Assembly (NCBI GenBank): GCA_003344405.1 | Contig: NOWV01000013.1 | Span: 806,001-870,000, forward strand | Direction of reading: 5' to 3' | Length of the DNA stretch: 64,000 bases | DNA from: Trichoplax sp. H2 | Taxonomy: Eukaryota | Shown: positions 1-51,240 of the stretch, piece after piece | Layout of the letters: every line of letters starts with the position of its first letter | Numbering within the stretch: position 1 is the stretch's first letter | Program-made: the position numbers and the translations under genes | The notes under the pieces: generated by a model | What the model was told of the DNA's origin: nothing | What the model saw: the letters and a program-made list of their open reading frames with translations, nothing else | The model's database searches: none

Positions 1-245
1 TGTTATCATTTCATTCTTCATAGGAGTCGTTCGGTAGTTTTTCTTGTTTTTTTCTATCGTAACTAACAGGTATGCTATAGTATCTTTAATGTTTTTCTTC
101 ATCTCTTCTACATTCATCTTCTACGACTTTAATGTAGTCTGAATATGAATAGTGTTTCGATTTTAGTTCATTTCAAACTTTCAAAACTTTCTTTTTCTGT
201 GTAATCAGACTTTACAAGAGCTATAAAAATATCCTTATAGCGATC

Positions 246-945
246 ATGGTTCTACCATCGAATAACGGCTTAGTTGTACTGGTGTTATTGGTAGCTTCTT
301 CACCAATTGGGGACGTAATTGCATTGACTAATGAAGATATATCAGACAGAAAACAAATTTTCAATGCCTTAGATGAACAAATGAGCAATCATGTTGATGA
401 AATGAAACCTATTGATTTTTTGAATCTCCAGCGAGAATTTGATGACACGCAAGAAGAACAAGATAGTTTCCTTTATGGACTACAAGATAAAAACGAGATT
501 GAAGACAAGAGTGAGATTAATCCTTGGTGTAATTTCAAGGAAACGAACAAGAATATGGAGAATCAGAATAATTTAATCAATCCAAAGATGGTCCCTACTA
601 AGAACAAGGTGATTTTCCTGTGATATGGATTTTTTCAAATTAAAATATTTTTTATGAGTTTGATAGCGAAAATTACAATATCCTTATAGTAAATAATAAA
701 TCCATAAACAATATTTTAACAGTGTGTTTCTTACTTTACTACTCAATGATCTACAGAAAATGAGGATATCATGGGGTCAACGACAGCGGCTTCGATATTT
801 TGCCTATCGTAGAAGAACTATATCTCAGAATGCCGGCGGTACAGTAGTTTTGACTGCACGAAGACGAAGTTCAAGTATACGACACGGATCTGCTTCCAGA
901 CGACGTAGAAATTGGAAACCTTCTTACCCTTTATTTTTGATATGA
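246..945 (+). CDS. Secreted prepropeptide, about 183 aa: signal peptide, acidic pro-region, Arg-rich cationic C-terminus (antimicrobial-peptide-precursor-like); coding exons 246-608 and 757-945
   Basis: Hydrophobic N-terminus (LVVLVLLVASS). Phase-0 donor AAG|GTGATT at 608/609 and acceptor CTACAG| at 756 join ORF 246..623 to ORF 724..945 in frame. Exon 2 encodes 62 aa with 15 R, 2 K and no D/E. Probable 5'UTR intron 70-208; AATAAA at 1074. Confidence 0.7.
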
Positions 946-3900
946 GATTTACGATATCGAATGAAACCATAAATATCTCATACCACCCATGCTGTAAGTC
1001 TTCCATAACATCCCATAAACAAATGCACTGCCTACACGTACACTAAAAACATTCTGCGATTTTATACATAAATAATAAACTGTAAATCAACTGGTTTGAA
1101 GTTTTAATACAGTCTAGCATATCTAATAGATAATTCTGCTTTATCTTGTTATGAATTTTGATAGACTATACGAAAATCTTCTTGCTTGATCATTAATAAA
1201 ATATAGTAAATAAAACTAGATTTTACTTGCGCGAAAAAATTTACTTTTGCGATGCATCCGATAGTTTACATGTCATTAATGGTATGATAGATAATCGTAC
1301 CTTGAAAAGAATATCAACTAAGATTGTTTTTCCTATAATTTCATCTAAGCTAATAAAATATGGCTTAGGCATAAAAGAAAACGGACTGCAATGCTGTAGA
1401 CTAACGTTTTAATAAAATTGATTTGTTTCCCTACGTCATCAACTTTTTGATACTTTATCCATGCACGGTGCCTCGTAATATTACTCTTTAGAACGAAATA
1501 AAACTGCCACAATTTGTATGTAGTTTACTAATATAAAATGTATTCTAGTATACTTTTGCTTAACCTCATTCATTTACAAATATCATGGAGATTTTAGGTT
1601 CGACATATAAGTATTGATGATCTCGCAAGTTTATGTGAGTTTATTCATGGCTCATTTCCAGATGAGATAAATACAGAGTTAAAACGACTTTTCTCTCTGA
1701 TTAACTATACACGGTAGAGTACGATATCTAATAAAGGAAAAGAGGAAAATGATTCTGTATACACCGTTTGCTATCCAGAATTTTTCAATAGTTTACATTT
1801 GATATATACTGACATAAATTATTACCACTTTTGAAATGTTGACATTATCATTTCCTTTATGACTTGGTAAACTTTATTACACATTTTACAAATGTATACG
1901 AAATAACATACGCCTACACTAGAAGTATGGTACTCAAATTAGTCCTAGCTCATGCAGTATACATTACATTATACTTTCTTAATTCAGTCTGGTTACGCAT
2001 CTGCCCAGTAATCGAATGTGCAAGTTTTAAGTAATACTACACTACATTTCCCCAACTATTTAGGAGTATGTCCATGGCAAACTAATTTTGCAACTTGTTT
2101 ACCATAATTATCGTAGAAATGTTCTAGATTATTTCATTACTATCGTAATATAGAATTATGGCGTTTCCTCGACGAATTTTGAAGCTAGCATTCTTATCCA
2201 CCTTTAAATTCCTGCCATCGCGACTGAAGGCCTTTTACCAAATATCTGAAAGCTGTGATGGCGCAGTTTCTAAACAATTCGCTAGACGAGATATCAGTAA
2301 AGAATTTCAGATGTGTGAGCATTAAAGATAAGTAAATTAATAAAGGATGGTGAGGGAATTAGAGCTACTTACAAATAAGATATTTCTTACATAAATGAAT
2401 AGAATTTCGAAAAAAATGTCAACTTTCTAATCTACGATTCTTAATTTGGTTACTAGGAAGTAAAGGAATATTTAAATTGTCCAAGAAAGACGTTTCAAGG
2501 TTGTAGTGCTTGGGTTCAACAATCCCTAATTATACACACATAATACGAATAGTATAAGTACACCGTTTCATCAACAGCAATCATGAAATTACCGTATAAG
2601 TATCGTAGACTATTCTACTTCTTAATACTACCGTACTTCAATTACTACTGTAATTAGCTGAAACTACTACAGGAGTGTATCGATTTGAGCAGAAATTTTA
2701 GTTAAATTTAATTTGTACTGTAAATTATTTTTGGAGCTTCACATACGATTAGGATTAAATTCATGTCAGTAATTGAACAGTGATAAAAATAGATAAATTA
2801 ATTGAAGCCTAATTGATAAATAACCAACGAGTACACTTACAAAAACATACGGTAAAGGATTTTCCACTAATGCTGTATCTAGAGCATTCATGTTTTAGCT
2901 GTCATCTAATCACTCCAACTCTATGATATCGTACAAATAGCGATCTAGTGCCATGTAAGCCTGTATAAATCAGACCTTCATTGCTGCGAAGACAGTATAT
3001 TTCAAGGTTAACTTTTACATAACACTTAGCATCCTGTAGATTAGCATTTTCATTAGCTGTTATTGATAATAATAAAAATATTGTTGCTGTGTGGGCGATC
3101 TGCTATAGCTTATTCCGCTCATTAAGTATGTCAAACTCAATTTTTAAGATAATACACCCTTCCATATTTAATTACAGACCCTTCAAGTTGGCTAGTCAGT
3201 CTTTTTTTACAACATCTTTATTACGAATATTGTTTATTGGTAGATTAGAATCTAATGTGATTCATACTACTACTTCCTTTCTCCCGTTACTATTTTCACA
3301 ACATATACAATTACGCTTAAATCTATTTATGATTGTTATAAAGTTAGTTTATGTCTCAATAAGCGTTTTCAAAATTTAAAATTAAGAGTATATTTTTAAT
3401 TCCGTCCCAGTAAATAAAATCGGAGGTTACTACTTTCATTATATTAACAGATCACACGACAAGATCATCGGATATAATACAGCAACAGTAATAACTTAAG
3501 CTATAATCTGATATGAATGCTTTACCCAAAATCATTGCTTTAGATTTGATACAAGAGCAAATGGATTGTTTACACTATTTCATTCGTTGATCCATACGCG
3601 TACATCGCATATTTATTGATTTATTTTCCCGAGATTGAATCGAACCTTATCACAAATATGCCCATGCCACTCTCTTTGTAAAATATAGGGTAATGTGTTA
3701 TAGAATTAGCAGTAGACTTCTTTTTTAATTGCCCTACGATTCTGATCATGAAATAATTTAGCCTAGTTATTATCCTGGAATAGTATCTTACATTGAGAAA
3801 GTCCCTTTGCAGCAAATTATCATATTGTAGGAATGCAGTAATCATGAGATCATGGATTACTGCGCTTTCTCCTTTTTGTTATGTAAATATCTATTATTTG

Positions 3901-5618
3901 GAATAATAGTAAACGGAAAGCAGTTTTTCTCTTAACGATACATGTCATCCCGTTTTTCGATCGTTAATGTTGCAAACCAGTTTTGCAACCAAGGTAATAT
4001 ACATAATCGCAATAGCTCTTACTGTAAGTAGTTAGTCTCAACTACGATATCTTCTAAGAACATTACATTTATTAAACCTAGCATGAGACCAAGACTTGAT
4101 CAAATCATGACTATTCTATAAATATCTATCTTTAGCAATAGTTTGTATCGTGACAATAGATATCAATTAATAATAGTTTCACAAATACAAAGATTACATA
4201 GCACCTGAATATCGAGAAACACCTAACTTTCGATAAAACTGCCCTGGATCAGAATTTAAGATCTATTTTACACTTATAATTTAATCATTATAAACTGATT
4301 ATGGCGATTAGCTGTACTGTATAGAAGATAAATAGATAAGCTTTTCGAATTTTATTAGAAGGTTTTTGAAACGAGCTGAATGGTAATCGATACTTATAGT
4401 TTAAGAATACAGAACCAAATCGAAAATTTCATCCTAGTTATTCGTTAAACTGAAAATATTATATAATTAAATCATAAATTGATAAGCATTACGTAAAATT
4501 ATATTTTATTTTATATTTCGTATTATTTTTTTATTCTTATAAAAGCAAAGAAAGCATAGGGTTAAAATGCTAGGTTTAGTTAGTTGTGTCTATCGAAAGT
4601 ATTTACTTTATTTGCATTCTATCGAAATCTATTCCATATTAGTGACGCATGATAAAGTAGGAGTATGTTGATAAAGGTTCCGGCAATTCTATCGAATTAT
4701 GATCATTCATTCGAAAGTCGGCTTGATTTCTCTAATGAATATATTGGGAAGAACAGAGATCTTCGTATCGTGTTTGGTTATGAAAGTTCTATACAGATTG
4801 TAATAATTTCTTTGCATTGGGCTAACAATAAGCTCAATATGGAACATAGAAATGAACTACAAAATATCACCGTCCTCTATTCTACTTAATATTGTTCATG
4901 ATGATCCTTGATCTACCAATCGAAATATTACTGACTATAACAAGATGATAGCTACAATTTATGCAAAACTAGTATATTGTAAATTAACTCTTTTTAATTT
5001 ACTGTTGGCCATCAGAATACTTTCTATCATTATTGTAAATAGCGTTTAATATACGGAAACGAAACATGAGAAAGAAATTTTACGTTTGGCTTGCATAAAT
5101 CTTATACACTCTTCGAAAGTAATAATTGCGATTTAATTCTCCAATAATACGGATATACTTAGTGAAATGTGAATAGATACGGTATGTATTCGTACCGGTT
5201 CATCATCCAGCTTTTAAATCAATTTCTTCGTTATTATGAAGTCATTAAATTTGTTCTGGATCATAATAGCTTTGATAATTATGCGTTCACCATGAAACAA
5301 CAATACGCTCACTCTTAACTTTCGATAAGCTAAGACACTAAAGAGATATAAATTAGCTGTAGGTTAACAACTCTCCGCATTTTAGTTCTGCTATCTGACA
5401 ACTTGTTCATGGTCAGTTTTATCCTGAAGGATTATCACCATTAATCAAATTAATAGCTATTGGTAAGTATCTTACGTAATGTTTTAGAATATCTTTGTAA
5501 AAATTCAATTATCAGTCTTTCTTATCACAGATGTGGACAACTAAGTTTGATCAACCAGTGATCTAAGTAATAAACTCTCTCCATTTATTGCTTATATCGA
5601 ATAGAATAACCAACCATC

Positions 5619-6038
5619 ATGAAGTCGTGCGCTGTCTTTCTGCTTTGCATGTTTATGTCCATGGTTCTTTCCATTTCGGCTGAAGAATTATCAGTAAATG
5701 ATGCTGAAAATCTTGGAGATAAATTTAATCTCGGTGATGTACCCGATTTGAAGGACATGGACGAATTAAAAGAAGAAAAACAAGAGGAAATAGATGAACA
5801 AAAATCCAAGGAAAGTGATCAAAAAGTCAATGAATTGCTTAAAGAAGCTAAAAGAATAGAAAAAGAGATTGAATCTTTAAATAGACAGCTCGATAATGAA
5901 GTAAAGGATGCGAAGGACCTTTCAGAAACAAAAAGCAATCTTGAGAATGAGAAAAATGGAATGAGTTCACTCTCTGAGGAGGCATTGGAAGATAAGGAAA
6001 TGTCTGATGAATCAGATAAAAGTCCTGAATACGAGTAA
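5619..6038 (+). CDS. Secreted acidic coiled-coil protein, 139 aa, function unknown
   Basis: ORF with a clear signal peptide (MKSCAVFLLCMFMSMVLSISA), an E/D/K-rich heptad-like body and one KR site. Probable 5'UTR intron 5463-5530; AATAAA at 6421. A further exon via the GT at 6035 cannot be excluded. Confidence 0.75.
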   Translation: MKSCAVFLLCMFMSMVLSISAEELSVNDAENLGDKFNLGDVPDLKDMDELKEEKQEEIDEQKSKESDQKVNELLKEAKRIEKEIESLNRQLDNEVKDAKDLSETKSNLENEKNGMSSLSEEALEDKEMSDESDKSPEYE

Positions 6039-7384: not shown

Positions 7385-10300
7385 TCAATATTGTCGATGG
7401 CAATTTTGTGCATCTGTTACTTCTAAGTGTTTATACACGTATTTAACATGTGAAGAGCGCCACCTAGGATAATATACTACAATTATAAAATTACAATACG
7501 ACAATTATCACTAAGTTACCTCGCTTTAAATGTGAGAAAGTATACAGTTTAATTTTATTTCTGTCCATCATACAAAAAGTTTACCATTTACGTTCTGTGA
7601 AGAAGATGTTGCGATGCATTCCTTACAGTATTTTAATGTTCACGATATCTACAAGTGTCCACGACCTTAGAGGGCTATCACTCAACTACCGTAACTTGCC
7701 ATAAATTGTCTTTCTTGTCCAATCTCTGATGCATTCTAGAGCTTTCCATAAAAGGAAATATGATATTGATAGAAGATTTATAAGAATGAGACCTGATCAG
7801 AATCATATGTCACTACAGTATGGCTTTTCCGTCTCTTAACCTCAGCAGCTGTTATTTCTTTCCCATCGATTTCGTTATGAGGGTTTATTAGATTTAAATC
7901 CATTGATTTCGATGAGGATATTGATAGCGTAGGCTTAGACAACATAATACTATCTTTGCTATCCAGTAAATTAGTTTTATTAGGATTTGATGAAGCTATA
8001 ATGTTTTGGCTGTCTGTTGGGCTTGCATTAACAGATTTGGATGTAAGGACATCTTTCTTACTAACAGCGTTGGAACCATTAGCTGCTAAAACACTGTCGT
8101 ATTTGCCATTAGATTTAGCTTCATTAGGATTAGAATCAGCTGCTGAAAGAAACTGATCCCTACGTATAGCATTTATATCATTAGCTTTCGATAACGGTAA
8201 CGATAAGGAACTTCTATCTTTCTTTGTAGCTAAATTAATATTAGCAGGTGGAAGTTCCGATGCTGATACCGTTAATGCGGATTTTGATAATGATGTGTCC
8301 GTTAAATTTTCGTTATGAAAAGTTGACGGAATTTCCGATGATTGCCTCTTTGGTTGAAATCCTGAACTTGTTAAATTATCGCTATAATTTACAAAATTTG
8401 TCGTATTTTTATCCTTATTTTGCATAGATGCAATGTCAATATTGTGTCGCAATGATAATTCTTGTATGATCTGATCACTGGTTAAACTACCTTGGCCTTG
8501 GTAGTGCTTCAATGGATTTGTTCCTGGTGATTCTACTGGTTCAGTTTTGTAACCATCTAATCGACGCTGAGCTGATGGGCTCTTTGACATGGTTTGAGAT
8601 GATTGGATATCTCCATTTTCCGATTCGTTTGTACTAATAATAGATGATGGTCTCGATTTGGGTTGTGGGGACTCGTTCTTCCCACGATATAGAAATCCAG
8701 TGAGTTTATTAAATATAGCACCTCTCTTCTTTCCTGATTCAGTTGTGGTATTTTTATCCTGATTAGTTTCTACATTTTCATCTACTTCTTGCCATACCGG
8801 TGGCGGTGGTGTCGTTGTAAACGAAGCACCAATATCTCGGCCATAAATGCTTGTTGTTGTTGATGGGATCGAATCTAAAGTTGATAAATTTTCCAATTTT
8901 GATATGGATAAATTAGAATCATGAATTGTTGGCTCAGTCGCTAGACTAGAATCAATAACTGAGTTTGTTATATCTTCATTATGGGATTCATGCTGGTAAC
9001 TATCCGATTCATTCGAACTAACACCAGATAGGCCATCGTCATCATCGTCTTTATTTTCATATCTTATTCTTAATTCATTTATGAAAGCTCGAACTTCCAT
9101 AGCCCTCTGTCAAAATGTCAATATTTCAGTTACTTATATGCACAGAATAGACTACTTACTGTAGTATAACAGTAGGAACAGAAATTAGACAATAATTCAT
9201 TGTAAGTACAGTAGGAGGTAGGCTATCACGCCAATACCAGCAGTAAAACACTTAAATGAGAACGAAGTTTGACAATATATGATCAAAAAATTCATTGTAA
9301 CTATCATTAGTAAATAAATCATTTGATTGTAAAAAGTGAAATATAAACTATGATGTGTATAGTTTAGTACGAATAATTACGAAACAGTAATTTGCTCTAC
9401 TGAAAATATACTCGTATTCGATATTATTTTATTAGTAGCCATCAGAATATTCTAATAAGATTACATGTTAATTTTATACGGTACAACTTCTAGTCATTTA
9501 ATTTCTGCACAATTTCATATCTTTTAACTTAAAAGTCACAGCTTAAACCTAGTTTGGGATTCACTATTGTTATGTAATGTGAAGAACCAATCTAAACTTT
9601 CTAATCGTCAACTTCCAGCTTTACCAGTAGATTGATAAATGCTGTTATTAGGATATTTTGTCTAGAGAACTTTAATATTTGATAAGATAATCAAAGTATT
9701 TTCCAGCTTAAATTGATACTGTAATCCGTAGTAATGAGTTCCAATTTAGAAATGGGTTCTATTTTAGACTATTTATAAGGGTGTTCATTTTAAAATATAA
9801 CTTTTATTTTAATTGGAAAAGTTAATACTTAAATTTCTCCAGAACCCTATATGTGCAAGTGTACAAGAGTTACCTACCTCTATGGACGACAAACGCTTTT
9901 CATGATTGAAAGCACTAGCAATTTCGATATTAGCTTGTAGAACTGATTTTGCTTCATTAGCTTCATAGTCATCTTGAGCTTGCCGTTGCAATGCCAGTAA
10001 ATTAATATATTCTGCTATGTTGCTAGCGCGATTTCCACTGCGTTGCTTCTTAGCATTAAGTTTAACGGATGCTACTAAACTATTCATATAAGACATTAAA
10101 CGTCGACACTGATCTAAGGCAGATTCTAATCGCTCTGGCTCTGATAGAATAAATTTTTCATCCATCACAACTAACTTCTGCTCTTTAATTAATACCTCCT
10201 TTAATTCTGATTTGATTTTAGGGAATTCTTCTGTAAGTCCATTGCAAGAATAGCGATACCATCAGTTTCAATTATTACATAACGAAGTAGTTTATCAGGT

Positions 10301-13300
10301 GTATTATAATGCAATTTATACTAAATATAGCATGAGCAAAATGATGAATTAAATAGGAAAATACCTTGCGCTAAACTGGTAATAGAAGAATTAATTTCGA
10401 TAATAGCCAACTTTAATGCCTTAATAACTGAGCTGTCGATTCTACAAAAGCGCTTACGGGCATCGTACTCCAACACAGCAATCGCTCTAGATAACAATTC
10501 TACTTCTTTAGTGAGTTGGTTAGATTGCTTTTGGTAGTTAAGTTTAGTTTTATCGGCAGCTAATCTTTCATCTCGGACAATATCTTGCCCTAATCATTAA
10601 AAGATATTGATCAAGAAAGTTATTAACATCATTGATGTTTGCTTAAGATCAATTATAGCTAAAAGGGGTTTTTAAGAGTAAAGTCAAAGATGGAACTTAT
10701 GCCAATTAACTTTCCTGAGGTTAATTTCGCAAAAAATAAAGTTTTAGCAATTTCTGTTGTTAAAGTGAGCCGTATAATATGACTACTGATACTTTGATAG
10801 AGCAGCTTATCATCGATACAGATATTGATGTAATCTTGAGAATTAATGCTAGACGATGACACTAGAGAAATATTTGCAAATGGTAACTAAGATGTAGGTC
10901 TACCGTATTCATTTGTTACTGAAACAGTTTTAACGACTGAAGTATTATGATGCAAAGTAAGATTAGAATAAGTTGGGATTTATACCTCTTGTCATCACAG
11001 ATGTCGCTGTTCGGATTGATTTAATCGTATTAGCTAACGTTATATCGAAGAGTTGCTGCTGTATTTCTTGTTGCTGACGAAGGCTAGTGTATTCCTCTCG
11101 CAACTTCGTTACGTCCTTAAGAATATTAGTCGCGATAACTTGAATTTTGTCTTTGAACTGGTTCATTTCTGTATTCAATTCTGCCTCTTTGGCTATAAAA
11201 TATTTATATTTAGTGACACTATCTTTATGTCCATAACATATTTGATTTATGAAAAATCATTTCCAGTTTACTCAAGGTAGAAACTACAAGATATATAGAT
11301 ATCATCTCATGTGTTTTATTTTGCTATTACTTTTCTATATTCTATAGGCATGAAAATGTGATCAAGGCCACTAGATAGTTGCTGATTCTTTGCTGAGCTT
11401 ATTTATTACTGTATTATCTCTTGTTAAAATATTACTTCCATAGTATAACAGAATCGATCATTTCCCCTTCTAGATTTAATTCTTGTACAATACATCATTC
11501 AATAATCACTCGCTTTTATATATGCTGAAACCTGCACGATATACAATAAGGTGAATGAAATCCGAGGTTATACTGCTGTTATGATACTACGATAATGCAC
11601 TTCTACTGTAAAATATTTTATAAATCATTAAATAGCATTCCTTTTTAACCAACAGGTACAATTTATTATACTGTATATGACAAAACTAATTAAGATAGCC
11701 ACTAAGCAAGTTAAATTTTGTATTATGAGATGCATGGTGGACGCACAAGACGTGGAATTAATTGTTACTAATTCAGTAGCGTGGTTATTTTTTCCGTAAT
11801 CCTAATTGTTCATAAGTCTATTGTACAAGATTTGCAATGTTCTTGAAATTAATTTATTGATATCGAATTTTTTACTACGATATTATACTATAGCATGTAA
11901 TACCCTGCGCTAGAGGCGTTTTGAAAAGGTTGATTACATATGGCGCATACCTTGGAATTCTCTTACAGTTTCTTGGTTCTTCTGAGTTAGCATAAGCGTA
12001 AGACTTTTTAGCTGTTGCTCAATATTATCAATTCGATCCGATTTTTCTCTGAGTAATTAAACAAACAGATTATTAGTGCCGCTATATTGAAGTGACTATA
12101 CAGTATAATGCTTAAAGTACTGAAATCTAACCTTGATTCTGTCGGCGATTGCTTACTTGAAGTATCGCCTGGACTTTTATATTGTTCGATGAAAGCATCT
12201 ATCAGACAAAAATTCAGCAAAAATTCAATGGAAAATATGAATGAATAAAAGCACAGTAGCTTTTACGACATAACAGTCATATCTGCTAAATTGATTATAT
12301 ACCAGTAGCTTCCAAAAATTAGAATAAAACTTCAAACTAAAATTGGAGCTGTAAAAGTACCGATGTCATGTCGTATTTTAATTTTTAATATACTATTTAT
12401 TATACCTATAGCTTCTGATGAACTGTTAATTCTTTGCCTATCAACAGCTTGGATATCGTAACCCTCTGAATCGCTAAATACTGACGGTTGATTCAGTGAA
12501 AATTGATATTCAAACATATCAATCTCATCCTCGCTAGCTATATCTACGTTGTCACTTTCTTTTGCTTTCGAGGCTGCACTTTCTGAAACAACAATGGCGG
12601 GTTGACCATCAGAATTTGTTTCATTCTGTTTCGGGTTATCACCTTGCAGTCGTTTTAATGATCCAAATTTTGGCTTTTTACCGGATTGAGTATCAATGTT
12701 TTCTTTATAATTAATATCTTGCCATGGTAATATTTTGTCGCCTTTATTTTCTTCGAAAACTTCGCTATCACCTTGCAGTCGTTTTAATGATCCAAATTTT
12801 GGCTTCTTACCGGATTGAGTATCAATGCTTTCTTTATAATTAATATCTTGCCATGGTAATATTTTGTCGCCTTTATTTTCTTCGAAAATTTCGCTATCGG
12901 AATCGCTGGCGTTTCTGAATTGTTGTATGCTAGCAGCTTTGGCGATATTCATCATTTCCATCGATTTGCTAAATTTCTCATCAAGTGCTGGCTTGCCTTG
13001 AAATTCATTAGATGATGCTGAATAATCTTCAGCCTGCTCCTTGACGGAGAAATCAGAGTCATCCTTGATTAGCGTATCGTCAGGATTTGAATATTTTGCC
13101 GGTACTAATTTATCGATCTTTCTATCAGTAGGACTTTTAATGTTAGTTAAACCGTAGGTAGACCTGTTTTGCGAATGATTTTTAAATTCTTGCAACCTAC
13201 GCTGGCTTGGTGGAGTATGCAAAGATCTAGGAGGTTTGCTACGCTTGGGTTGTAATGATTTCATAGAGTTACTTTCGCTGTTATTTGATTTAAGCGTATT

Positions 13301-16257
13301 TTCATCATCTATATCGACATCTTGATCAGATGAAATTTTCGCTGTATTCCTAATAGCAATTCTACTTCCTTTCCTGCCTAAGCTAGATTCTTTGTCGATG
13401 CAATCAGAATCTGGGTTCGCCTTATACATTGGCTTACTTCCTTTACTTTTTTCTTCACCTTCTGAGGGTTTAATCCGATTAAATTTGGAATAGGATTCAA
13501 CAGAAGATGTAGATGCATGGTCGGTACTGGATTGCATATTAACACTGCGTGTATCTTCTATTGGAATTGGAGCTTTTTGTGAAACTTCTTTCGATTTAGG
13601 ATTCTCAGTCGTTTTAACAACTTTCCTAGTCGTGATTTTTACACTTCTCTTATGGTTTTGTGGTTTCTGAGGTACTAGTGATTGATGATGAATATTCCGA
13701 TTTTCTGTATGAGAATAACCACTGTCCATACTCGATTGCTTTTTCAATAAAGGTTTTTTAAATGATGAAAAGCCATTATGCTCAAATGAAGACGAATATG
13801 ATAAATTTTCCGTTGATCTGCCGATATTTGTAGAATTTAAGGGCACGTTTTCGTTTGTTGGCGACGAACATGAAGACGTTGGAACGGAATGGATGCCTGA
13901 TCTTTTATTTGGGGATCGAATACGATAAGGATTGACTTTTTGTGGTGGTATTTTAGTACCAAAATCAATGGGTCGAAATTTAGGACTATTCATGATAGGT
14001 GTAGGATTTTCTGACGGTGAATTACCGGGTGCATTTGCTTCCAGTTGAAGGAATAATTGTTTATTGGTATTGAATTTTGAACGATAATCTTTATGATAGG
14101 GATTGATAGGAGAAGTTGTAGATTTATCATTCTCAATATCGCTGGTATCTCTTGAACGAGATTCTGGAATAGAAGGTTTTAAGCCTTTGTACCTTTCTGC
14201 TGCACTAACAGCTCGTCTTATACTAGATTTCTTCGATGAATTCGGTGTGGAGATTTCCGCAGATGTCTTATATGAGCTCATTAGATTGTTAAGATCTTCA
14301 TTACTGAATCTACGAAGATCTATGGCTGCTCGCGATCTTGGCATTAATTTTTTACTTTCTTCGCTTGATGATGGCGATGTATCACTTTTACTTGCCATTT
14401 CTTCATTAAGTAAAAATAATAGTATTCCTCCGGTTCGTATTTGACTGTGACGAATGAAACAAATATAGCAATATATAGTATTAAATAATTTTAAAGTTTT
14501 TAATTTAGGTGTTAAGATTGGTGAAGGCAGACCTTTTTAGTTCTAGACAAACTACAGATTACAACAACTACCTTAAGTGCGTTAAAGTTTCAAAGGAGGA
14601 ATCATTTTCATTACGAAAGTAAATGTAGCCTCGCTCAGGAGTTACTTCATGATGCGATTGAAAGACGTCCGGAAAATAGTCATGGAATAGTCTCTTTAGA
14701 TCTTGATATGTCAAACCCGAATGAAATGGAATTCGAATTTGACGGCGATTGCATTGCAGAAAGATAGACTCTTCAATCGTATGATCTACGTTTAAAGAAA
14801 ATATTTTTATGAACTCATACTTATAATATTATCGATATTTTTAACGAATTGTTTTAAGTTAACTTCGCAAGTAAGTCGGACAACAGTTGCTCTATCTGGC
14901 AATCAATGACTTTTTATCATATGCGGTAGTGATTAGGTTACGTTATTTATATAGTTCATAAACTCAATATTATTTGACCGTTATACTGTCCGTGCAGAGA
15001 TTAACGAAATGCTTTAAATAATCTTCACAAGCAAGTTATGCAATAGTTGCCATATCAGAAAGTAAATGATTTTTCTGCCTTATACAGTTGTGATTTGATT
15101 ACGTTATTAACGTTAATTATTTGAAGTGCAAGGATCAGAAGGGAATTGCTATATTCGTAATTTTTTAAGACAACTAAAGGTGTGTGTGAAAATTCTATCA
15201 TTAAGAATAGGAGATGCTTGTTTAATCATTGAAGTCCAAGGATTAGAAAGAGAGTACTGTATTCTTAATTTTTTTTTTGAGACAGCTAAAGGTGTTCCTG
15301 AAACATTCTATCCTCAACAATGGGATGCAACATTTGCACAATGTAATATAACCTTGGAAGACTCGTTTCATCAAAGTTCAGGTAGTCATAATATCCTATG
15401 AAGATTTCGAAACCATGATGGCTACCTTTTGTAAACATTTCTTATTTTATGATACGGTGCATTTTAAAATGCCCTTCATAAATGGATAGATAACAGTTTT
15501 GACATGGTCCCCTCAAAATCATTATCCCTGGATTACATTCTATAATCATTCTACTTTAATAAGCCAGTCTTATGATTGCTGACTTAGTAAGGAGTGATTC
15601 ATTATGATAGCATTGTGATCTCAGTATATTATAACTGGGGTGGAAAGCATAGAGTGTGAAAATAATCAAATTCATATAGTAATTAGTATCAATGAATATA
15701 ATTTTATCGTGATAACTTAACGTAATGTTATTATGCTTAGAGTAATTATAGCATCGATAAAGATTCAATACTCTGTAATAAGAATTGATTAAATCTTTTG
15801 ATTTAGCTAAAGTACTCATTAAAATAAGAATATTACACGTACCTTAAATCAATAATAATATTTGAGTCTTAAAATTTCTTATCACGTAAAACTACCGTAA
15901 ATTATCATCACTAATCGTTTAAAGTAATTGGTAAATCACACCGAAACTAATTCGTACTCTTATCAATATCATAAGAAGGATTTATACCTTAACAAGATAG
16001 ACTGAAATTGTGATCTCAGGAATTACCGTACTTTGTTGTTCAATAGAAACGCCATGAAGTTTTTAAATTTAATATAAGTACAATACTGATGATCATTTTA
16101 AAGTAAAAGGTATTGATATGTATTTTCTCGAATTTCATACTGGATTTGCTTAACAAAATAAATACTCAAATAAGCTTAATTATTTGATCTTACTTGATAC
16201 TCTTCTAACGTAGTCTGTTGGGAATGAAGTTGGATGTTGAGGATTAATTCTTGACAT
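7385..16257 (-). CDS. SRCIN1/KIAA1217 (p140Cap/Sickle-tail, AIP3-domain) family cytoskeletal adaptor, multi-exon; both ends tentative
   Basis: Exon 14785-14572 encodes SIFLQCNRRQIRIPFHSGLTYQDLKRLFHDYFP...YIYFRNENDSSFETLTHL, which resembles the AIP3 N-terminal region. It splices in frame into the large Ser-rich exon 14444-12406. Coiled-coil exons at 11.2-9.9 kb include EVLIKEQKLVVMDEKFILSEPERLESALDQCRRL, a motif typical of the family as I recall it. A low-complexity exon lies at about 9107-7793. The start is tentatively placed at the ATG opening exon 16257-16194 (phase-compatible). Confidence 0.7.
12637..12898 (-). repeat. In-frame 129-bp (43 aa) tandem duplication inside a coding exon
   Basis: DSE(I/V)FEENKGDKILPWQDINYKE(S/N)IDTQSGKKPKFGSLKRLQG occurs twice; DNA offset is 129 (12641 vs 12770) with few mismatches. 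Confidence 0.95.
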
Positions 16258-23281: not shown

Positions 23282-24979
23282 TCACGACATTACTAGATTG
23301 CGGGGTTCGTTTAATCCAGGATCAGGTAAGTTTAAATTTTTCAATAATGAAGATAGCCAACGCTTTGTTGAGTTGTCTTCTTTTAAGAACATAGCGAAAG
23401 TATTATCTCTGAGTTGCTCTGGTAAGCATTGCCTCAGGGCTTCTTTAGCTCTGTTGACAAAAGTATCCAAGCATTAGCTATGAATATTTTAGGTTGGCTA
23501 ATTTTAATATCAAAAGCAAGCAAGAATTCAAGCTTACCTAGAATTCTCCGATAAGCACAAGTAACATCGAACAACATGCTTGAGCAATCGAGCTGATGGT
23601 TCTTTGCCAAGAGCTGACACCATTTTACTCTAATTTATAATAATACTTCATTAAAAAGTTGATTTAATCAAGTATTCCATAGTAAATACAATTACAATGG
23701 ATGGTAATAAATTACTGTCCCAAAATTGTTTTCTTATAATAATTGATAGACAAATAATCTTACTAAAATCATGGCCACATGCGAAAAGCGTTCATATGTG
23801 TGACAGATATAAGCCAAGCCGATAGGGTCGACAAGAATTTTCTGAAGGATGAAGGTTGCTACAGTTTTCGACAGTTCACTTCCAATTTCCATTATTCGTA
23901 GGCATAAGGGAACAATTTCAGTGGATAGTAGAAAACTGGTTACGTCAGAGTCATCAGTCTGTTGATTAATTTTAGGTAGGGTATCCAAAAAAAAAACAAC
24001 ATTTTGGTGATAGTATCAGAATCAACCAACATTCATCTCACCCTATGCCAGGCGATCGATTTTATAAGCAACAGCAATAAGTATGTTACCTTAACTAATG
24101 CACCGATGACACCTAAGCTGGTCAAACGTAAGTACTCAAAGGGCCTTGATTTAGTTGTGGTATGGAGGAAGGGATACAGGAAGAGCGGAATATGTGCTGT
24201 GTGGAGAAACAAAGCTTTTCATTATTTGGACGTTTTAGAATTAATTGTTGCGAAGGTTACGATAATAACATTGCCTACGAACCTTCTAAAAATAGCGATC
24301 TTGTTTCAGGATGTGAAGCGATACACTGAAGAAGAGCTAATGCATTGCAAACGCGGTTGGACTGTGCAGCCTGAATCGCAAGAAACATTGCACAATTTTA
24401 TATCAAAAATGACGATTAAGTTAATGTATCTTGTCTGATATTAAATTAAGTTTAAGCAATTCAAGACTCAACTTACTGTTAGAGTTGGTGGATTAACGTA
24501 TGGATAAATATCAACTACTTCTTGCACCAAAGCAGCCACAGTTCCTATAATTATGTAGAATAGAATAGAATAACGTATTCAGTAAGGCATGTTTTACCAA
24601 GCGGAAAGAAAAAGACTATATCAATATCCAATTTACCAAAAGAATGCCATATCAGTGGAGCAAGATTTTGTACACTTTCACGTCCTTTACTAAGTATTTG
24701 AAAAGTATCAAAGGATCACATTATTGGTAGTTCTGATACATGTACTGTATGATTGGATTGTAACGTTGGTGAGAAAGGATAAATAATTTATATTATTCAC
24801 CTTAGCTCTAGTAAGGCTTCTTGTCTAGCTTCTGAACTGGCTGGATTGGATAGATCCTGTACCAAGGAGTAGATTTTTTCCATTTCTGTTGCTTGTTGCC
24901 TAGGCTGTGACTGTTGTTGGTGTGCTTGCAACATTGACTGTTGTTGCGGTGATTGAGAAATAGCAGGCTGCTGCACCAT
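23282..24979 (-). CDS. CNOT9: CCR4-NOT subunit 9 (RQCD1/Rcd1/CAF40), multi-exon, with Gln-rich N-terminal extension
   Basis: Spliced peptides [100 protein letters not shown] and [15 protein letters not shown] are diagnostic. Confidence 0.97.
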
Positions 24980-25362: not shown

Positions 25363-26447
25363 ATGCCAAGGTATACTAGTTAGAATATTGTGTTTGATAT
25401 CGATGAATTAAGTAAGAAAATTAGCCATGTTGAACAAGAAATTTTGTACAAGTCCATTCAGCGAGAGCATTTTACTGTAGTTGACAAACATTTTAGAGCT
25501 ATAAAAACAATGATGAACGAAATGTTCAAGCTAGAACCAACAACAGCTAGCTTGAAAGAGATATTTTATCGGTGGAAGAGATTAGGTGAATGTACTATGT
25601 AGGATATTCCTAGTTGTATATCCAAACATGGAGGAAAGCATTGCTCAGCTTACTGTAGAATCGTTTGATAAGTTGAAATCAAGTAGCGAAACACCGAACT
25701 TGTACTCTGCCCGTCGGCGCAGTGCGTGTTCATGATGAAGCTTGTACTGTAGTCTACACCTAGACTATGTCCTCTTGGCTACCGCTTTGGTACGATACAG
25801 TATGGGCAGTACAGTATTTACTATCCAGTCTATCACCGTTAAGGATTATTGATGTAAAAAGAACATTTCCCCCAAAAAGGCCACATCAAGTGGTGACTGC
25901 AGTTGATGGCATCCATGAGTGCCATTTTGAACTATGTCCTTTTTTACCCAGTTGTCTTATTGAAGCATTGAATCGAATGGAATAGTTGGAAATATTTGCC
26001 ACACTATTCATCTGTATGTTATGGTCAATTTGGTATAGCTACTGATGGAAGCAACACTTTCTCTAGTGTTGGACTGGATGGATGTACCGTTGTACTAAGC
26101 ACAACCCTATGGTAGCGCATTGCATCGCAACCTCCATTGGCCATTTTGATGATCCAATTTCAATCTGATGTAGCGATGGATTTTTTGGCTGTAGCGTGTT
26201 AAGTCTATTCTTCGATTATGATGAAATAGTACGACCTATCACTTCTGGTGTACTTGTATATTCTAGTAACATCAATAACCATATTATTGGTGACAAACCT
26301 GATACATCTTCACGCTTTTTTTTGGAACAGTTGGATTGCGATGTCTTGGATGCTAGTTTTAGTCTTCTTTCTTATTTCAAAGTTTGTCTGCAAGAGACTT
26401 GCGTTGTCTGCTACAGTCCACTGTCAAACTGGAATAACAGACGGTAG
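25363..26447 (+). pseudogene. Decayed intronless coding sequence with a putative CheD/NTAN1/CNF1-like cysteine deamidase motif
   Basis: Protein-like segments are broken by in-frame stops (25381, 25600, 26166) and frameshifts. 26014-26153 reads VCYGQFGIATDGSNTFSSVGLDGCTVVL/KHNPMVAHCIATSIGHFDD across one frameshift. Confidence 0.5.
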
Positions 26448-26660
26448 CGTACAGTGTATAGAGACTGTACACTGTGCTGTCCAAGCGTACAGTGTACAGT
26501 ACATGCAGTACAGTACATACTGTACAAGATATACTGTACAATGATCACCAGCAGTCCCAGTCCAAGACTCTACTCTACTGTATACGTACTGAACTGTACA
26601 CAGTTACACCTGTCGAAGGTTTGGTAGTAAAGTGCCTGTGTACTACAAATCATGTTTGCG

Positions 26661-27090
26661 TAGCAGAAAGTCTCTGCGTACTACAAATGGCGTATGCGTA
26701 GAAGAAAGTCTTTGCAACGACTGCAAATCATGAGTGCGTAGAAGAAAGTCTTTGCAACGACTGCAAATCATGAGTGCGTAGAAGAAAGTCTTTGCAACGA
26801 CTGCAAATCATGAGTGCGTAGCAGAAAGTCTTTGCAACGACTGCAAATCATGAGTGCGTAGAAGAAAGTCTTTGCAACGACTACAAATCATGAGTGCGTA
26901 GCAGAAAGCCTTTGCAACGACTGCAAATCATGTGTGCGTAGCAGAAAGTCTTTGCAACGACTACAAATCATGAGTGCGTAGCAGAAAGCCTTTGCAACGA
27001 CTGCAAATCATGTGTGCGTAGCAGAAAGTCTTTGCAACGACTGCAAATCATGTGTGCGTAGCAGAAAGTCTTTGCAACGACTGCAAATCA
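26661..27090. repeat. 40-bp minisatellite, about 9.75 near-perfect copies plus one degenerate copy
   Basis: G(A/C)AGAAAG(T/C)CTTTGCAACGACT(G/A)CAAATCATG(A/T)GTGCGTA repeated head-to-tail from 26701, with no spacers. Confidence 0.98.
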
Positions 27091-27274
27091 AAGAGTATCA
27101 CTTTCAAAATTGAATGTTCAATTGCCAACAACGATCAGTCCCAAAAACAGACAAGTTCAATCGAATCCAGCTTTGCCCTAGTTTAGTGGCAGAATTCACT
27201 TTCATCTATAAAATAATGGTACTTTCTGCAAATGATGTTTTCGGATATTGTACGCCATCACTCCAATTTTGCTC

Positions 27275-27535
27275 ATACAGTACAGTAGCTAATGCCTCAC
27301 ATGTTGCATACTGTACAGTGTACAGTGTACAGTATTTTACAGTACAGTACAGTACAGTACTGTACACCATAAAGTCACCTACAGTACTGTACGTACAGTA
27401 CAGTACTGTACACCGTAAAGTCACCTACAGTACAGTACAGTACTGTACTGTACTATACGGTACAATCGGAGCGGGATAGGTACTGTACGGTACCGTACTG
27501 TACTGTACTGCAAAGACATCAAGCTACAGTACACA
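27275..27535. repeat. (TACAG)n/(CTGTA)n pentamer-rich low-complexity tract upstream of CLP1
   Basis: Dense TACAGTACAG and TACTGTACTG runs; similar tracts occur at 18285-18330, 26447-26600 and 51299-51345. Confidence 0.9.
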
Positions 27536-41692: not shown

Positions 41693-44600
41693 TTATATTC
41701 TTGTCACTCGAAGGTGGAGATCTGGATTTGGCCTCATGGTTAGTCGCATTTTACGAATAATTTTCACCTCTGGTACAAGCGAGAATGACAATTTGTTAAG
41801 TAATATTGCTAGTACAGTTTTCATTTCAGCTAGGGCAAATTTATTTCCAATGCATGTTCTAGGCCCCGCTAGAAATGGCACATAGCTGTATTTATCCGTA
41901 TAGTTGGAATCTTCCCAGCGGTCAGGATTAAATTGTAACGGGTCGGGGAAATAATCCGGCAATCTGTGGTTATGAATTAATCATCACAAATATAGGATAC
42001 GTCAATGTATGTATAAAATCAAACATAGCAGCTATTTTTAACATCATCACAACGCTTTCGAAAGGAACAAGTCACAATCTATAACAGCTAATGATACGCA
42101 TACCTGTGAGGTGGTACAATAGTAATTACTGTTCCCTTAGGTATATCATATTTATCAATCTTATCATCATTGATTGCCACACGAAATGTCATAGGTGCAG
42201 GAGAGAATAATCTTCAATAGATTATAGAGAGAGAAAAATAATTTCAGTATCGATTATATTTCAAGCCTTTCAATTTTTGCAATTAGACAAACTAATCCTT
42301 TAATTAACAAACGATGAATAAACCTAAGAGATTCTTTAATGACGTTTTCAAGATATGGTAATTTTTCTAGAACATCCAATGTTATCAAATGATGTTCCTC
42401 TAATACCATCCTAATTTCTCTGCGTACTTTCTCCTGCACATCTGGATTACTGGCTAATGCATACAATGTCCACGTCATAGAAACACTTGTTGTCTACAAT
42501 CAAAATGTATCACAGAAATTAAAGATGGCAGAAAATTGACTCAACTACGATTAGGCAGATCTTTTAGCTGAAAAATTACGTTTCCAATTTGTTGTATGAT
42601 ATCATAACAAAACCTTACTTCATGACCGGTAAAGAGAAAAGTCATAATTTGATCATGTAATTCCTGTTGGGTTACACACGGGTTTAAATTTTCATCTCTT
42701 AATGACAACATAATGTCTAAAATGCTTTTATGTTCAGTATTAACTTCTTCTGCAAATAAAATAGTATTTCGTGATAAAGTTACTGTGCATCTCTACAGAT
42801 TGTAGAAGAGGATCAATACGTTGAAGAATTATTTCGTGTACAGAGAGAAGTGCTTACCTGTATTTAATTCTTGTAATTTTTTAGCAATAACTGTATCAAC
42901 AACATCATGACAGCGTTTAAGAGACTTTGCAAAATTGACATTCCGCGCTATCGGAATATTTCTTATGATAGGAATCATGCTCATAAATCTAATGTTGCAT
43001 AGCCGATAAATTAGTTTCACTTTTTAAGTTGATGGAGAAAAGGGTGTATCGGTATATACCTGGCACATTATATTATCGGTTGCAGTTTTAGCAGTGCTGT
43101 ATAGTTGATTATGTTGTATTTCTAATGTAGCATATACTTACGATAGTTCACTACCAGTTATTATAGTCCGGAAACTTTCAGAGATATCATTACCCTTATC
43201 TTCTAGGGAGTTACATTGGAAATCAAAGATGCCTTTGCATGTGATATCTAACGTTAGCCTAGTTAAATCTTTTAGTATATCTATCTCCACTACATTATTT
43301 TTGACTTCTTCGAACCATAATGAGGCTAGTAGATCTCCATAATGTTGAAACATAGGAACTAGCGCTAAAAATATGAATAATCAAACTGGTGTCATAGTCT
43401 TATGTTATTTGCTTGCTACAGGGCAATAAAGAACAATATGCTATGGATAAAAAAACTTGTACTAAAGTAGCTTAGATACGAAGTTAAAGTTTGTAGGCGC
43501 TGGTCCTACTATTTAATATATATCTATTTCATACCTTTAATTTTGGAATATTTAAAAATAGGATTAAGAACTTTTCGTTGCTCTGTGTGAGTCTTTCCTT
43601 CAGAAGACGTTACACCGTTGCCGAATAAAGGCTTAATAAGCCTAAATGAAATCAGTATTAAAGTATAAATAAACTGCTACATTAACAACATTACCAAAAC
43701 ACGGTATATAAATAGATCAAAAACAATGTCATTGGCAGGTTACACAAATATAATACGTCTAACAACAAGTTCTATTTTACATCAGATATCTTATCCATTC
43801 CGTACCTTAAGATATAGGCAGGCTTTTGATAATTTTCACTATTTGTTACTAAGACATGCTTAATTGCTTTTGGATCTAATATTGCAACACGATCTTCATT
43901 CAGCAAAGACTGATAGCAGAATATTTGTCCATAGGTAGCGCTCCATCTGTGATGATGGAAACAGTGCCATCTTAAATACTTAACTACTGTTTGGTGTGAG
44001 GGTATACGAATGCAGCATATTTATCCAATCATTAAAAAATCAGAAAAGCATATGCAATACTTCAATTAGTTTTTGGTAATATACTTACTCAAAGAATGGT
44101 TCTGCTGGTTCATTTTTCAGCAATGTTAGCATTTGACCTAGCGGTGACCAGGTAAACGGTCCCGGCATCTAGAAGTGTTTCATGAAAGCGTTATATTTAT
44201 AATATTTATATTGGTAAAATTAGTAGCTTTATGTACATCCCAAACATTATTGTCTCGTAGATGATTAGGTGCGTTAAAGAAAGGAAAATAAAAGTAAAAA
44301 TACGTACAATATCTATCAGATGTTACTGTATAATGTATATCGTAGAGTATGCTAAAGTTAACTGCCGCAGGTATAGTCTGCAGATACCATAGCTAAATTA
44401 GATGTTATCGATACACGTACATATCGTAGAACAGCAACTCTTTCATCATTTTCAATTTGCATAAGTTATTTAGTAGAAGATATAATTTGATGCTGATACT
44501 TGCATCGACGTGATTGATACATAGAGTAGAATGATAATTTTTTCATCATTTCCAATTTGCATAAGCGATTTACATGACATGATTTGATGCTATGGTACTA

Positions 44601-48119: not shown

Positions 48120-49174
48120 CTATAAGTTATTTTCTGCAGGCAATGGGATAGTGAAAAATTGACTAAATAAGTAATCACTCCAGCTTGTAGGTAAAAGCGC
48201 TATCAATGCCATTAATTTCGATTCAAAACCAATCAGATAGTGATAGTCTGGTCTGGTCGATAGTAATGCATCGGCAACAGTTTCAGCAACCAAATTTAAA
48301 TCCGATGAAGCTTGCTGAACATAAATTCGAATATCCTCTAGTACTAAAAGATCAATAGTCAATGTTATGCATTATAATAATTGTAATTATATCACTACCG
48401 TCATGATAGTATGTTGAACTTACGTTTATTGACATATTCTTCACTATAAAATTTTTTAGTTTGATCGTCCAAGTTGTTGTATAACTGGAGAGTCTCTCTT
48501 TCAAGAGCACCACCACAAATCATATTGGTTCTAAAGTAGCCAGGCTCAACTGTATGCACTGTGACACCAAAATACTTCATTTCACGGCGTAAAGCATCGG
48601 AGAATGCCATTAAACCGTACTTGGAGATACTGTAAGCACTGCAACCAGCAGTGGATATACGACCTAGAATACTACCAATATTGACAATTCTACCGCGTGA
48701 TTTTTTAACCAGTGGTAAGAAAGCTGTTGTGATGGCTACTGAGCCGAACAAGTTGACTTCTGTTACTTTCTTATAACGTTCAATGGGTACCCATTCGATT
48801 AATCCACTGCCAGATACACCAGCATTATTGACAATACCCCATAAGCCTTGATCATCAGGCAATGTTTGCGTTACGATTTGAACAGCTCTTGCAATATCCT
48901 CTGCATTAGTGATATCCAGCATGAACGGATGAAGACGTTTGGTTGCTATTTTACGCAATCCATCGATGCCACGTTGAGTTAAGCATCCTGCAAATACATA
49001 ACATCCTAATTGGTCCAGTTTTAAAGCAGTAAGTCGGCCAAAACCAGAGTCACATCCAGTCACCAAGACAAACTTGTCAGTCGCTTGGATCTTGCCATTC
49101 GTTGAATAACGGAAGATTTTATAAGCTATAATAGCAGTGAGAAGGGCAATAAAAGTATACAATATGAATGTCAT
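48120..49174 (-). CDS. Short-chain dehydrogenase/reductase, SDR9C type (RDH16/HSD17B6/DHRS9-like); exons 49174-48424 and 48343-48120
   Basis: N-terminal TM segment, TGCDSGFG, GLWGIVNNAG, catalytic S...YSISK, EPGYFRT; one phase-1 GT-AG intron. Confidence 0.95.
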
Positions 49175-49939
49175 GATCGTCTTCGTAGATGTTGACTACA
49201 ATAGTGTGTCTCTACTATCGATAGTTCTACTTGAGGTTATGGACAGCTCCGTCGTCATTAATTAGAAACTGGGAATGCATGAACGTCTATTTTACGTCGT
49301 TTGAAGACGTCTTTTCTCTTTTGTGCCCCGACCTCGTCACTACCGATGGCAAGCTAATTCACCATTGGTTAGGATCCTTCACCGGCAATATTAATAAAGC
49401 AGTACACAAGATCGTGTGGTCAATCAAGATTAATAATCCAACCGTATTCGATAGTTGCTTATACCTATTGCTATCGTAAGCATGATGGGTTTAAAAGTTC
49501 GATAGTTGTACAACCTGCAGACAGTCTTCCTAGGGCAAGTTGATTGTGGATTAAAAGTTGGAGATCGGTGTGCAAAATCCACTGCTGCAAGCCTAGCAAT
49601 GATCTTGTAGCAGATTAAAGATGACAAACAAGCGTATTCAGTATTGAAGTACAACAGTAACTACACACCTTTCCTACGCTAATAAGCCATTTGTCAGGCT
49701 CATCAATGATACTAATGATTAATTAATTCATGAATAAGGGAGTAATAAGAAGCTCGAGCAATGGCAAGACTTCGATGATGGCAACGCGAAAGGTAGATCA
49801 AGATGGATGAAAAAACGAGAATTAATGCAACCCCCTAACTAGGCCACCGTCGCAGTCAGATAGCAAGTATGCTCACTACTGATAGAGCACTCTAATAGTC
49901 ATCATGCGATGTCTACAATTTCAATCAACTGAGTCGTGT

Positions 49940-51240
49940 CTAGCACAACATAGCGATTTCACTCACGTCCTTACTACAGATTGAAACACTTAGTAGTAGT
50001 AACGGACTGAGAGACTGACAGACTCATGGTCTCCATACTGAATCATGGCTTGAGTAAAGCTTGAATCATAGCGATGGACCGAATGACTGACAGACTCGTG
50101 GTCTCTATACTGAATACTGAATCAAAGTCCAGTAATCAATGACTTCACTCACTTACTTTCTACAGATTGAAACACTTAGTTGTGATGGACAGAGCGACGG
50201 ACTCTTGCTATCGGAGACTTTCGAATCATGCCTTGAGTAACTACAGTACATAGCGATGGACCGAATGACTGACAGACTCGTGGTCTCCATACTGATTAGT
50301 TGTGATGGACAGAGCGACGGACTCTTGCTATCGGAGACTTTCGAATCATGCCTTGAGTAACTACAGTACATAGCGATGGACCGAACGACTGACAGACTCG
50401 TGGTCTCCATACTGAATACTGAATCATAGTCCAGTAATCAATGATTTCCCTCACTTACTTTCTACAGATTGAAACACTTAGTTGTGATGGACAGAGCGAC
50501 GGACTCTTGCTATCGGAGACTTTCGAATCATGCCTTGAGTAACTACAGTACATAGCGATGGACCGAATGACTGACAGACTCGTGGTCTCCATACTGATTA
50601 GTTGTGATGGACAGAGCGACGGACTCTTGCTATCGGAGGCTTTCGAATCATGCCTTGAGTAACTACACTTACTACAGTACATAGCGATGGACCGAATGAC
50701 TGACAGACTCGTGGTCTCCATACTGAATCCTGAATCGTAGTCCAGTAATCAATGATTTCACTCACTTACTTTCTACAGATTGAAACACTTAGTTGTCGTG
50801 GACAGAGCGACGGACTCTTGCTATCGGAGACTTTCGAATCATGCCTTGAGTAACTACTGTCAAGCTTGAATCATAGCGATGGACCGAACGACTGACAGAC
50901 TCGTGACATCCATACTGAATTTGAATCATGAACGGGCGATGTATGATTTCACTCGCTCACTCGCTACGGATCGAAACACTTAGTTGTGATGGACAGAGTG
51001 ACGGACTCTTGACATCGATACTCAATCATTGTTTAGTGATTAGTGATTTCACTGCGGTCATAGACTGAAGATTGACTTATACTTAGTACAGGATGTAGTA
51101 GCGATGGACTGAGCGACTGACAGACTGGTGGCATCGATACTGAATCTAAATTATGAAATGGTGATGAATGGTTTCACTCGTTCGCTTACTGCAGATTGCA
51201 ACACTTAGCTGTAATGGAACCCGCGACTGACTGACTCGTG
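49940..51240. repeat. Hierarchical tandem array: 120-bp units inside a higher-order repeat of about 302 bp
   Basis: TAGTTGT(GAT/CGT)GGACAGAGCGACGGACTCTTG at 50177, 50297, 50479, 50599, 50790 and, degenerate, 50981. Confidence 0.95.

Follow-up and report, generated by a model that had tools for sequence, protein, structure and literature searches.

The window, a stretch of 64,000 nucleotides of the Trichoplax sp. H2 contig NOWV01000013.1, carries near its start the gene TrispH2_002211, which is the sixth of seven same-strand genes for secreted proteins arranged in tandem (Table 1). TrispH2_002211 is a genuine, spliced Trichoplax gene whose product has already been deposited as a hypothetical protein; the 183-residue translation is identical to GenBank RDD45739.1 of Trichoplax sp. 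H2. An earlier note, made from the DNA letters alone, had described the gene as splice-hidden. This holds for the T. adhaerens model TRIADDRAFT_54839, which runs unspliced into the intron, stops at 125 residues and misses both intron and tail, but not for H2, where the full protein is in GenBank. The intron that the same note had placed between 608 and 757, with its length, borders and phase, was recovered precisely, as spliced contigs from three of the four sequencing runs join these two positions; the joint is absent from the fourth run, which bears another organism label and consists of short unspliced pieces. The RNA status of the runs is a guess. None is recorded as RNA, and contig depths are unfit for ranking genes. 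None of the listed joints led to the AG at 722, which the note had named as the competing acceptor and whose use would bring a stop after eight codons. The last exon's other frames and acceptors at 658, 666 and 689 were likewise discarded as short or without support. The transcript comprises three exons and has a 5′UTR intron that the earlier description had lacked; ATG 246 is its first ATG, and a search for an upstream in-frame start in this transcript found none.

Table 1. Features of TrispH2_002211, its tandem neighbors and the dispersed relatives; plain positions are those of the window.
Feature	Position	Strand	Basis or remark
Non-coding first exon	13..69	+	Start 13 inferred from TATAAAA at -19 and initiator-like TCATTC; contig cover begins at 42-47
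5′UTR intron, GT..AG, 139 nt	70..208	+	Joint 66->206 (cut +3), contigs of 2/4 runs
Predicted signal peptide, residues 1 to ~26	246..323	+	Hydropathy; cleavage point inferred
Acidic propiece, residues 27-121	324..608	+	Sequence composition
Phase-0 intron, GT..AG, 148 nt	609..756	+	Contig joints, 3/4 runs, 3 studies
Cationic tail exon, coding part, 62 aa, stop at 945	757..945	+	Sequence
Family head, SWG then Arg/aromatic block	769..819	+	Common to upstream neighbors and dispersed trichoplaxin-2-like genes
3′UTR, AATAAA at 1411, poly(A) after 1433	946..1433	+	Contig of one run
Downstream neighbor, signal peptide and acidic 139-aa protein, no cationic exon	5619..6038	+	5′UTR intron near 5463-5604
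Five upstream coiled-coil genes	L004:6753-8047; L003:2647-5825; L002:25-3307; L002:5651-7925; L008 from 8626 (G000:C164:774600-803900)	same as TrispH2_002211
Dispersed poly-Arg/aromatic genes	L019, L036, L040, L041, L043, L049-L052, L054, L056-L058, L062-L064, L066-L068, L074

The remainder of the window holds other features. Large Ser-rich and coiled-coil exons of one gene lie on the minus strand at 7778-14536 (three of these exons gave no Pfam match), and four ordinary genes, also on the minus strand, are found at 23734-24015, 41693-41980, 48401-49195 and 58619-59488 (Rcd1, a cytochrome P450 and two short-chain dehydrogenases). Tandem-repeat ORFs and TACAG-type simple repeats are present at 50153-50748 (minus strand) and 26169-27479 (plus strand).

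The precursor is laid out by charge. A hydrophobic stretch at residues 8-18 (mean Kyte-Doolittle hydropathy 2.96) is followed by an acidic propiece with a net charge of -10 (-13 over residues 27-99) that contains one Cys and ends in ...TKNK, and the proprotein carries +7 overall. The composition reported in the earlier note was reproduced: its approximately 22 acidic residues correspond to 11 D and 11 E in the first coding exon, and the tail of 62 residues contains 15 R, 2 K and no D or E (net +17). The dibasic KK that splicing was said to create is also present, with K121-K122 straddling the exon junction. The charge switch does lie near the exon boundary, as proposed, but not exactly there, since the last acidic residue is 105 and the charge therefore turns slightly ahead of the boundary, about 16 residues earlier. 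Among the 240 open frames of at least 62 aa in 124 kb, the cluster's six basic exons are the only ones to contain a 62-residue window with a net charge of at least +15. The tail has seven aromatic residues and no Cys, and it ends in ...PLFLI, without the C-terminal glycine that amidation would use. No amphipathic helix was found in it either: the highest 11-residue moment is 0.50, a value equaled or exceeded by 1,977 of 2,000 shuffles (Eisenberg scale). Because the tail is less amphipathic than nearly all of its own shuffles, as are most of its relatives, a pore-forming helix of the magainin or arminin type is unlikely, and the arminin and frog-peptide model put forward in the note, which also lacks its C-terminal glycine here, fits poorly. 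A single-sequence AlphaFold model predicts a helix at 127-146 and gives low confidence for the rest (pLDDT 54, too poor for a fold search).

Di- or tribasic sites occur at residues 121, 139, 156 and 169, and the only furin-type site, R-X-[KR]-R, is at 169-172. In each of the three RNA contigs the allele carries R169I. Since arginine runs are a conserved feature of the family described below and the sole furin-type site is lost in one allele, the first reading is at its weakest where it has several peptides released at the RRR and RRRR clusters; judged by sequence, the runs look like payload rather than convertase sites. Compared with the window, the RNA-contig allele has 4 changed positions among 186 nt of the tail, 1 among 363 of the propiece exon and 7 among 448 of the 3′UTR, counted among the best-supported matches listed. 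On these counts the tail diverges more than the propiece exon (p 0.047) and about as much as the 3′UTR (p 0.74). Its reading frame is intact in both alleles, the sole indel being of 3 nt, and the net charge stays near +16. Three of three substitutions are non-synonymous, which has a chance of 0.42, so positive selection is not claimed; the allele data fit either diversifying selection or relaxed constraint.

The five upstream genes, all within 32 kb, have the same general plan, i.e., a signal peptide and acidic exon with a phase-0 donor, then an exon beginning in an arginine run (splices predicted). Their arginine-run exons extend into basic coiled coils of about 230-590 aa with paired Cys, four of the five end in CCxxC, and Pfam gave generic coiled-coil matches only. 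These endings presumably resemble the disulfide lock of the oligomerization coils of COMP and thrombospondin. Exact look-ups of the unspliced neighbor ORFs returned 0 of 7. Three upstream arginine-run exons share the SWG opening of the TrispH2_002211 tail, and the junction KK is absent from the four upstream neighbors inspected. Counting locus tags from the cyclin gene (002205, cyclin B2) to TrispH2_002211 makes the upstream five, by inference, 002206-002210, one of which is Ta 63786; the latter (TrispH2_002207) is probably the member lying 23 kb upstream. In the accessible text of PMC12013895, Ta 63786 is a marker described as a secretory protein that lacks known domains. This probable cluster member has the layout and SWG-Arg head of TrispH2_002211 and gives the best pairwise match to its tail, but behind its head stands a basic coiled coil, about 200 aa long and with a CCxxC end, that is missing from TrispH2_002211. 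A tblastn and blastn search of the TrispH2_002211 3′UTR found no coiled-coil remnant and no frameshift origin of the tail.

The downstream neighbor, probably TrispH2_002212 (Ta 63787) according to gene order, is transcribed and unspliced through its stop. A protein search with it returned zero records of 76-244 aa at E<=10. Direct sequence similarity to TrispH2_002211 was rejected (E 0.17, with 16 of 1,000 shuffles reaching the score once signal peptides were removed); this acidic-only protein is possibly a trans-acting counter-ion or a tail-less family member. Between the two genes, the minus strand yields a spliced transcript (1908-3777, two CT..AC joints) that is likely non-coding, its longest Met-ORF being below 50 aa, and a short dispersed repeat lies at 2544-2680, where many unrelated contigs from all four runs align with loose ends.

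Own-genome protein searches with either exon gave only the gene itself, and the wider family was thus found through the neighbors and a motif. According to the accessible text of PMC7436000, trichoplaxin-2 is cut from a T. adhaerens precursor with a signal peptide, an acidic propiece and 13 consecutive Arg, and bacteria are inhibited by 0.25-2 uM of a synthetic fragment from its C-terminus. The trichoplaxin-2 gene, which a short motif placed on another contig of the H2 genome, has a TATA box, a 5′UTR intron, a signal and acidic exon ending KKA|GT in phase 0, and a last exon of the form WW-R9-aromatic (splices predicted). A signal and acidic ORF followed by an arginine-run exon was present at 20 of 32 loci, trichoplaxin-2 included; the 32 were chosen because they resembled its first exon or carried a W-R5 motif and are a selection, not the family total, and several of the 20 are near-identical copies on small contigs. 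As a DNA pattern, W-R5 is unspecific (78 matches against 60 in the control). The dispersed tails are 29-78 aa long and built of Arg and aromatic blocks, with 2-4 aromatic residues separating the Arg runs. Several are tandem repeats, for instance of two aromatics plus three Arg ending in G-K-K, and one shares the word WRRRRRYYIRRRR with the probable Ta 63786 head. KK stands immediately ahead of the exon boundary in trichoplaxin-2 and two relatives. At one further locus (L059, G000:C619:180000-182600), two adjacent Arg-run exons encode Cys-containing tails with G-K-K, possibly a multi-peptide or duplicated gene. The dispersed family may include the published AMP1-4.

TrispH2_002211 follows the trichoplaxin-2-like plan of a 5′UTR intron, a signal and acidic exon, a phase-0 intron and a cationic last exon, supported by RNA here and predicted elsewhere. 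A profile built without this contig, from 15 of the dispersed tails, ranked its tail first of 2,709 local frames (E 0.079), and all 500 composition-kept shuffles scored lower than the tail in either scoring mode. Its last exon opens, as in the family, with W-x-Arg block-aromatic-Arg block, although the match is low-scoring (11.9 bits) and may be convergent. An SWG-Arg DNA pattern, designed with TrispH2_002211 in mind, matched five times genome-wide, four of them in the cluster, against 0 in the control. In pairwise comparisons with the five neighbor heads, 3, 6, 22, 64 and 464 of 2,000 shuffles reached the score of the tail. A profile of these five heads did not list the TrispH2_002211 frame under default scoring and ranked it tenth in a 17-residue version; with the neighbor-head profiles the tail beat 1,981 to 2,000 of 2,000 shuffles. 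Beyond composition, the propiece resembles neither the cluster nor the dispersed genes, and a search with the trichoplaxin-2 propiece gave 14 matches that do not include TrispH2_002211; the signal and propiece of the coiled-coil neighbors likewise show no homology to those of the trichoplaxin-2-like genes. The G-K/R amidation ending found in 11 of the 15 dispersed tails is absent, and Arg makes up 24% of the tail against a family median of 43%. Resting jointly on layout, position and head motif, these comparisons make it probable that TrispH2_002211 belongs, as a distant and divergent member, to a poly-arginine precursor family of Trichoplax.

In its resemblance to trichoplaxin-2, TrispH2_002211 shares the signal peptide and acidic propiece, a tail of Arg runs and aromatics, a phase-0 intron near the charge switch and a KK near the junction. 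Trichoplaxin-2 itself has 9-13 consecutive Arg, a 31-aa tail with an amphipathic end and a G-K ending, whereas the Arg run of TrispH2_002211 is broken and its 62-aa tail has neither amphipathicity nor G-K. The tested trichoplaxin-2 fragment, the one amphipathic member of the family, has a moment of 0.96 compared with 0.50 here (Eisenberg scale); since that fragment is amphipathic and free of poly-Arg, its MIC is not transferable to TrispH2_002211.

Outside Trichoplax, little resembles this protein. Word-index homologue searches with the first exon and the tail matched only the Trichoplax cluster, and a full HMMER library search gave nothing credible beyond the genus; a repetitive 790-aa protein (E 7e-5) was judged spurious. 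TrispH2_002211 had zero matches in Pfam (full protein) and among PDB sequences, and the ESM Atlas had nothing above 0.79 for it or for a neighbor's exon. Among the entries listed in Table S4 of PMC10580291, its orthogroup comprises the H1 and H2 genes only, unlike those of the cluster neighbors, which include Hoilungia and Cladtertia members. In the literature searched, largely outside subscription journals, no Trichoplax poly-arginine precursor family was described, and there was nothing relevant on gene 54839 in Trichoplax or on placozoan arginine-rich secreted coiled-coil proteins.

Several known precursors share part of this architecture. As described in the accessible text of PMC12013895, the arminin-like AMP1-4 of Trichoplax (Ta 55945, 56030, 60631 and 64402) are 150-250 aa long, with a signal, an acidic N-region and a basic C-region. 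TrispH2_002211 is in the same co-expression module as AMP4 in published tables, which would place it with the epithelial cells that make AMPs. Compared by description and not by sequence, AMP1-4 have a C-terminal glycine that TrispH2_002211 lacks. Its H1 counterpart 54839 is none of the four named genes, and a fifth gene goes unnamed in the part of that paper accessible here. Having neither a terminal glycine nor a predicted amphipathic helix, TrispH2_002211 fails the definition of both arminins and AMP1-4. Hydra arminin 1a, as outlined in the available part of PMC6217004, has an anionic front and a cationic C-terminal peptide, but its 1a-C product is an amidated, helix-forming peptide of 31 aa, unlike the TrispH2_002211 tail, and no sequence match to Hydra arminins was found in the homologue searches. 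Mammalian alpha-defensin precursors (PMC2803202, in part) offer an analogy only, with their anionic propiece, cationic mature peptide and clustered, duplicated two-exon genes; the tail differs from alpha-defensins in having no cysteines and no Pfam match. Placozoan neuropeptide precursors have repeated short peptides with dibasic and G-K/R flanks and peptidergic expression, a pattern that TrispH2_002211 does not show.

In published single-cell modules, expression of the gene is cell-type-specific in both strains. H1 54839 belongs to the co-expression module darkgreen (0.774) with AMP4 (64402), its paralogue 64427 and the intelectin 64393 (PMC10580291, Table S3), and the module also contains genes labeled IRAK4 and NF-kB1; both statements refer to 28 of its 63 entries, and the module is absent from the annotation sheet. 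The H2 gene is in the 18-gene module maroon, labeled ‘epithelia_unknown’, with 002207, 002209, 002212 and the AMP4 orthologue 007441 (PMC10580291). All seven H2 cluster genes, identified by their order, fall in ‘epithelia_unknown’ modules; in H1, Ta 63786 is in a module other than that of 54839. AMP4 cells are located close to the ventral epithelium's rim, and a reviewer regarded the AMPs' immune role as speculation, as found in the accessible part of PMC12013895. The one peptidomics table searched contained zero rows for TrispH2_002211 or its six neighbors. Arginine-rich peptides are hard to detect in peptidomics, which makes this absence weak evidence.

Taken as a whole, we consider TrispH2_002211 a candidate precursor of a defense-type polycation, with an anionic propiece and a cationic peptide, and give this reading an even chance of being right. 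It retains from the earlier note the secreted defense effector, for which the trichoplaxin-2-like layout and tail head, the shared module with AMP4 in both strains and the intelectin in H1 speak; the arminin model fits poorly, and the release of several peptides is a weak proposal. The predicted signal peptide would send the protein along the secretory pathway; inside granules, the tail would be neutralized by the acidic propiece. A cut at or near the basic junction residues K121-R124 would liberate the greater part of the tail as a single polycation that is not amidated, and the ventral gland cells of the rim, which also produce AMP4 and an intelectin, would release it. Its Arg blocks, flanked by W, Y or F, would bind anionic microbial surfaces, acting less as an amphipathic pore-forming helix than in the manner of a cell-penetrating or protamine-type peptide. 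TrispH2_002211 would probably be a young, divergent and short member of a cluster whose other members bear long coiled coils.

The tail could instead be a decaying remnant in a truncated, relaxed copy of the coiled-coil neighbors, any function residing in the acidic part. The tail has diverged as much as the 3′UTR, its Arg run is interrupted by Q and L, the orthogroup is limited to two Trichoplax strains while those of the neighbors reach Hoilungia and Cladtertia, and the acidic-only neighbor is transcribed without any tail. We nevertheless think this unlikely, as both alleles keep the frame and most of the charge, a 62-codon open frame has a computed chance of only 0.006-0.02, the 3′UTR is free of coiled-coil remnants and expression is specific to a cell type in both strains. 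A comparably low probability attaches to a secreted polycation with a non-immune task, such as adhesion, attack on algal prey or, together with polyanions (the acidic-only neighbor among them), the condensation of mucus or granule contents. The non-amphipathic character of the tail and of most of the family would suit such a task, the 200-550 aa of basic coiled coil with paired Cys in the neighbors suggest a structural role, and the ‘epithelia_unknown’ modules of all seven genes leave room for it; yet the H1 module partners are AMP4, an intelectin and immune-labeled genes rather than digestive enzymes, and the relative trichoplaxin-2 is antibacterial.

It is more doubtful still that the protein is a prohormone cut at KK, RRR, RRR and RRRR into several short signaling peptides. 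The four di- or tribasic sites would allow this, and placozoan prohormones do use KK, KR and RR sites (S8 text of PMC12013895, as far as accessible). However, a repeated peptide and a G-K/R amidation signal are both absent, the expression module is epithelial and not peptidergic, the mass-spectrometry table lists no peptide from it, the sole furin-type site is polymorphic, and in the relatives the stretches between Arg runs are just 2-4 aromatic residues.

Beyond the single gene, we tentatively put forward a wider picture that may well prove wrong. An expanded placozoan family would store poly-arginine/aromatic peptides of cell-penetrating type behind acidic propieces, using a modular arginine head either alone (trichoplaxin-2, TrispH2_002211) or before disulfide-locked coiled coils (Ta 63786 and the neighbors), with the acidic-only neighbor as a trans-acting counter-ion. 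This would be the non-amphipathic chemical defense of a dedicated gland cell, and TrispH2_002211 would link both forms.

Placozoans feed on biofilms, and few of their effectors have been described. Trichoplaxins are the only placozoan AMP family listed in the accessible part of a review (PMC11767717), and a 2025 paper added four further candidates. Taken alone, TrispH2_002211 is a modest and atypical family member, whose splicing corrects the T. adhaerens reference gene model. It connects both an orphan marker, Ta 63786, and the ‘epithelia unknown’ cell type with a gene family of which one member is antibacterial, and this family provides a ready set of natural arginine-rich peptides for testing. 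Should the family indeed do without amphipathic helices, synthetic poly-arginine peptides would have a natural counterpart in it.
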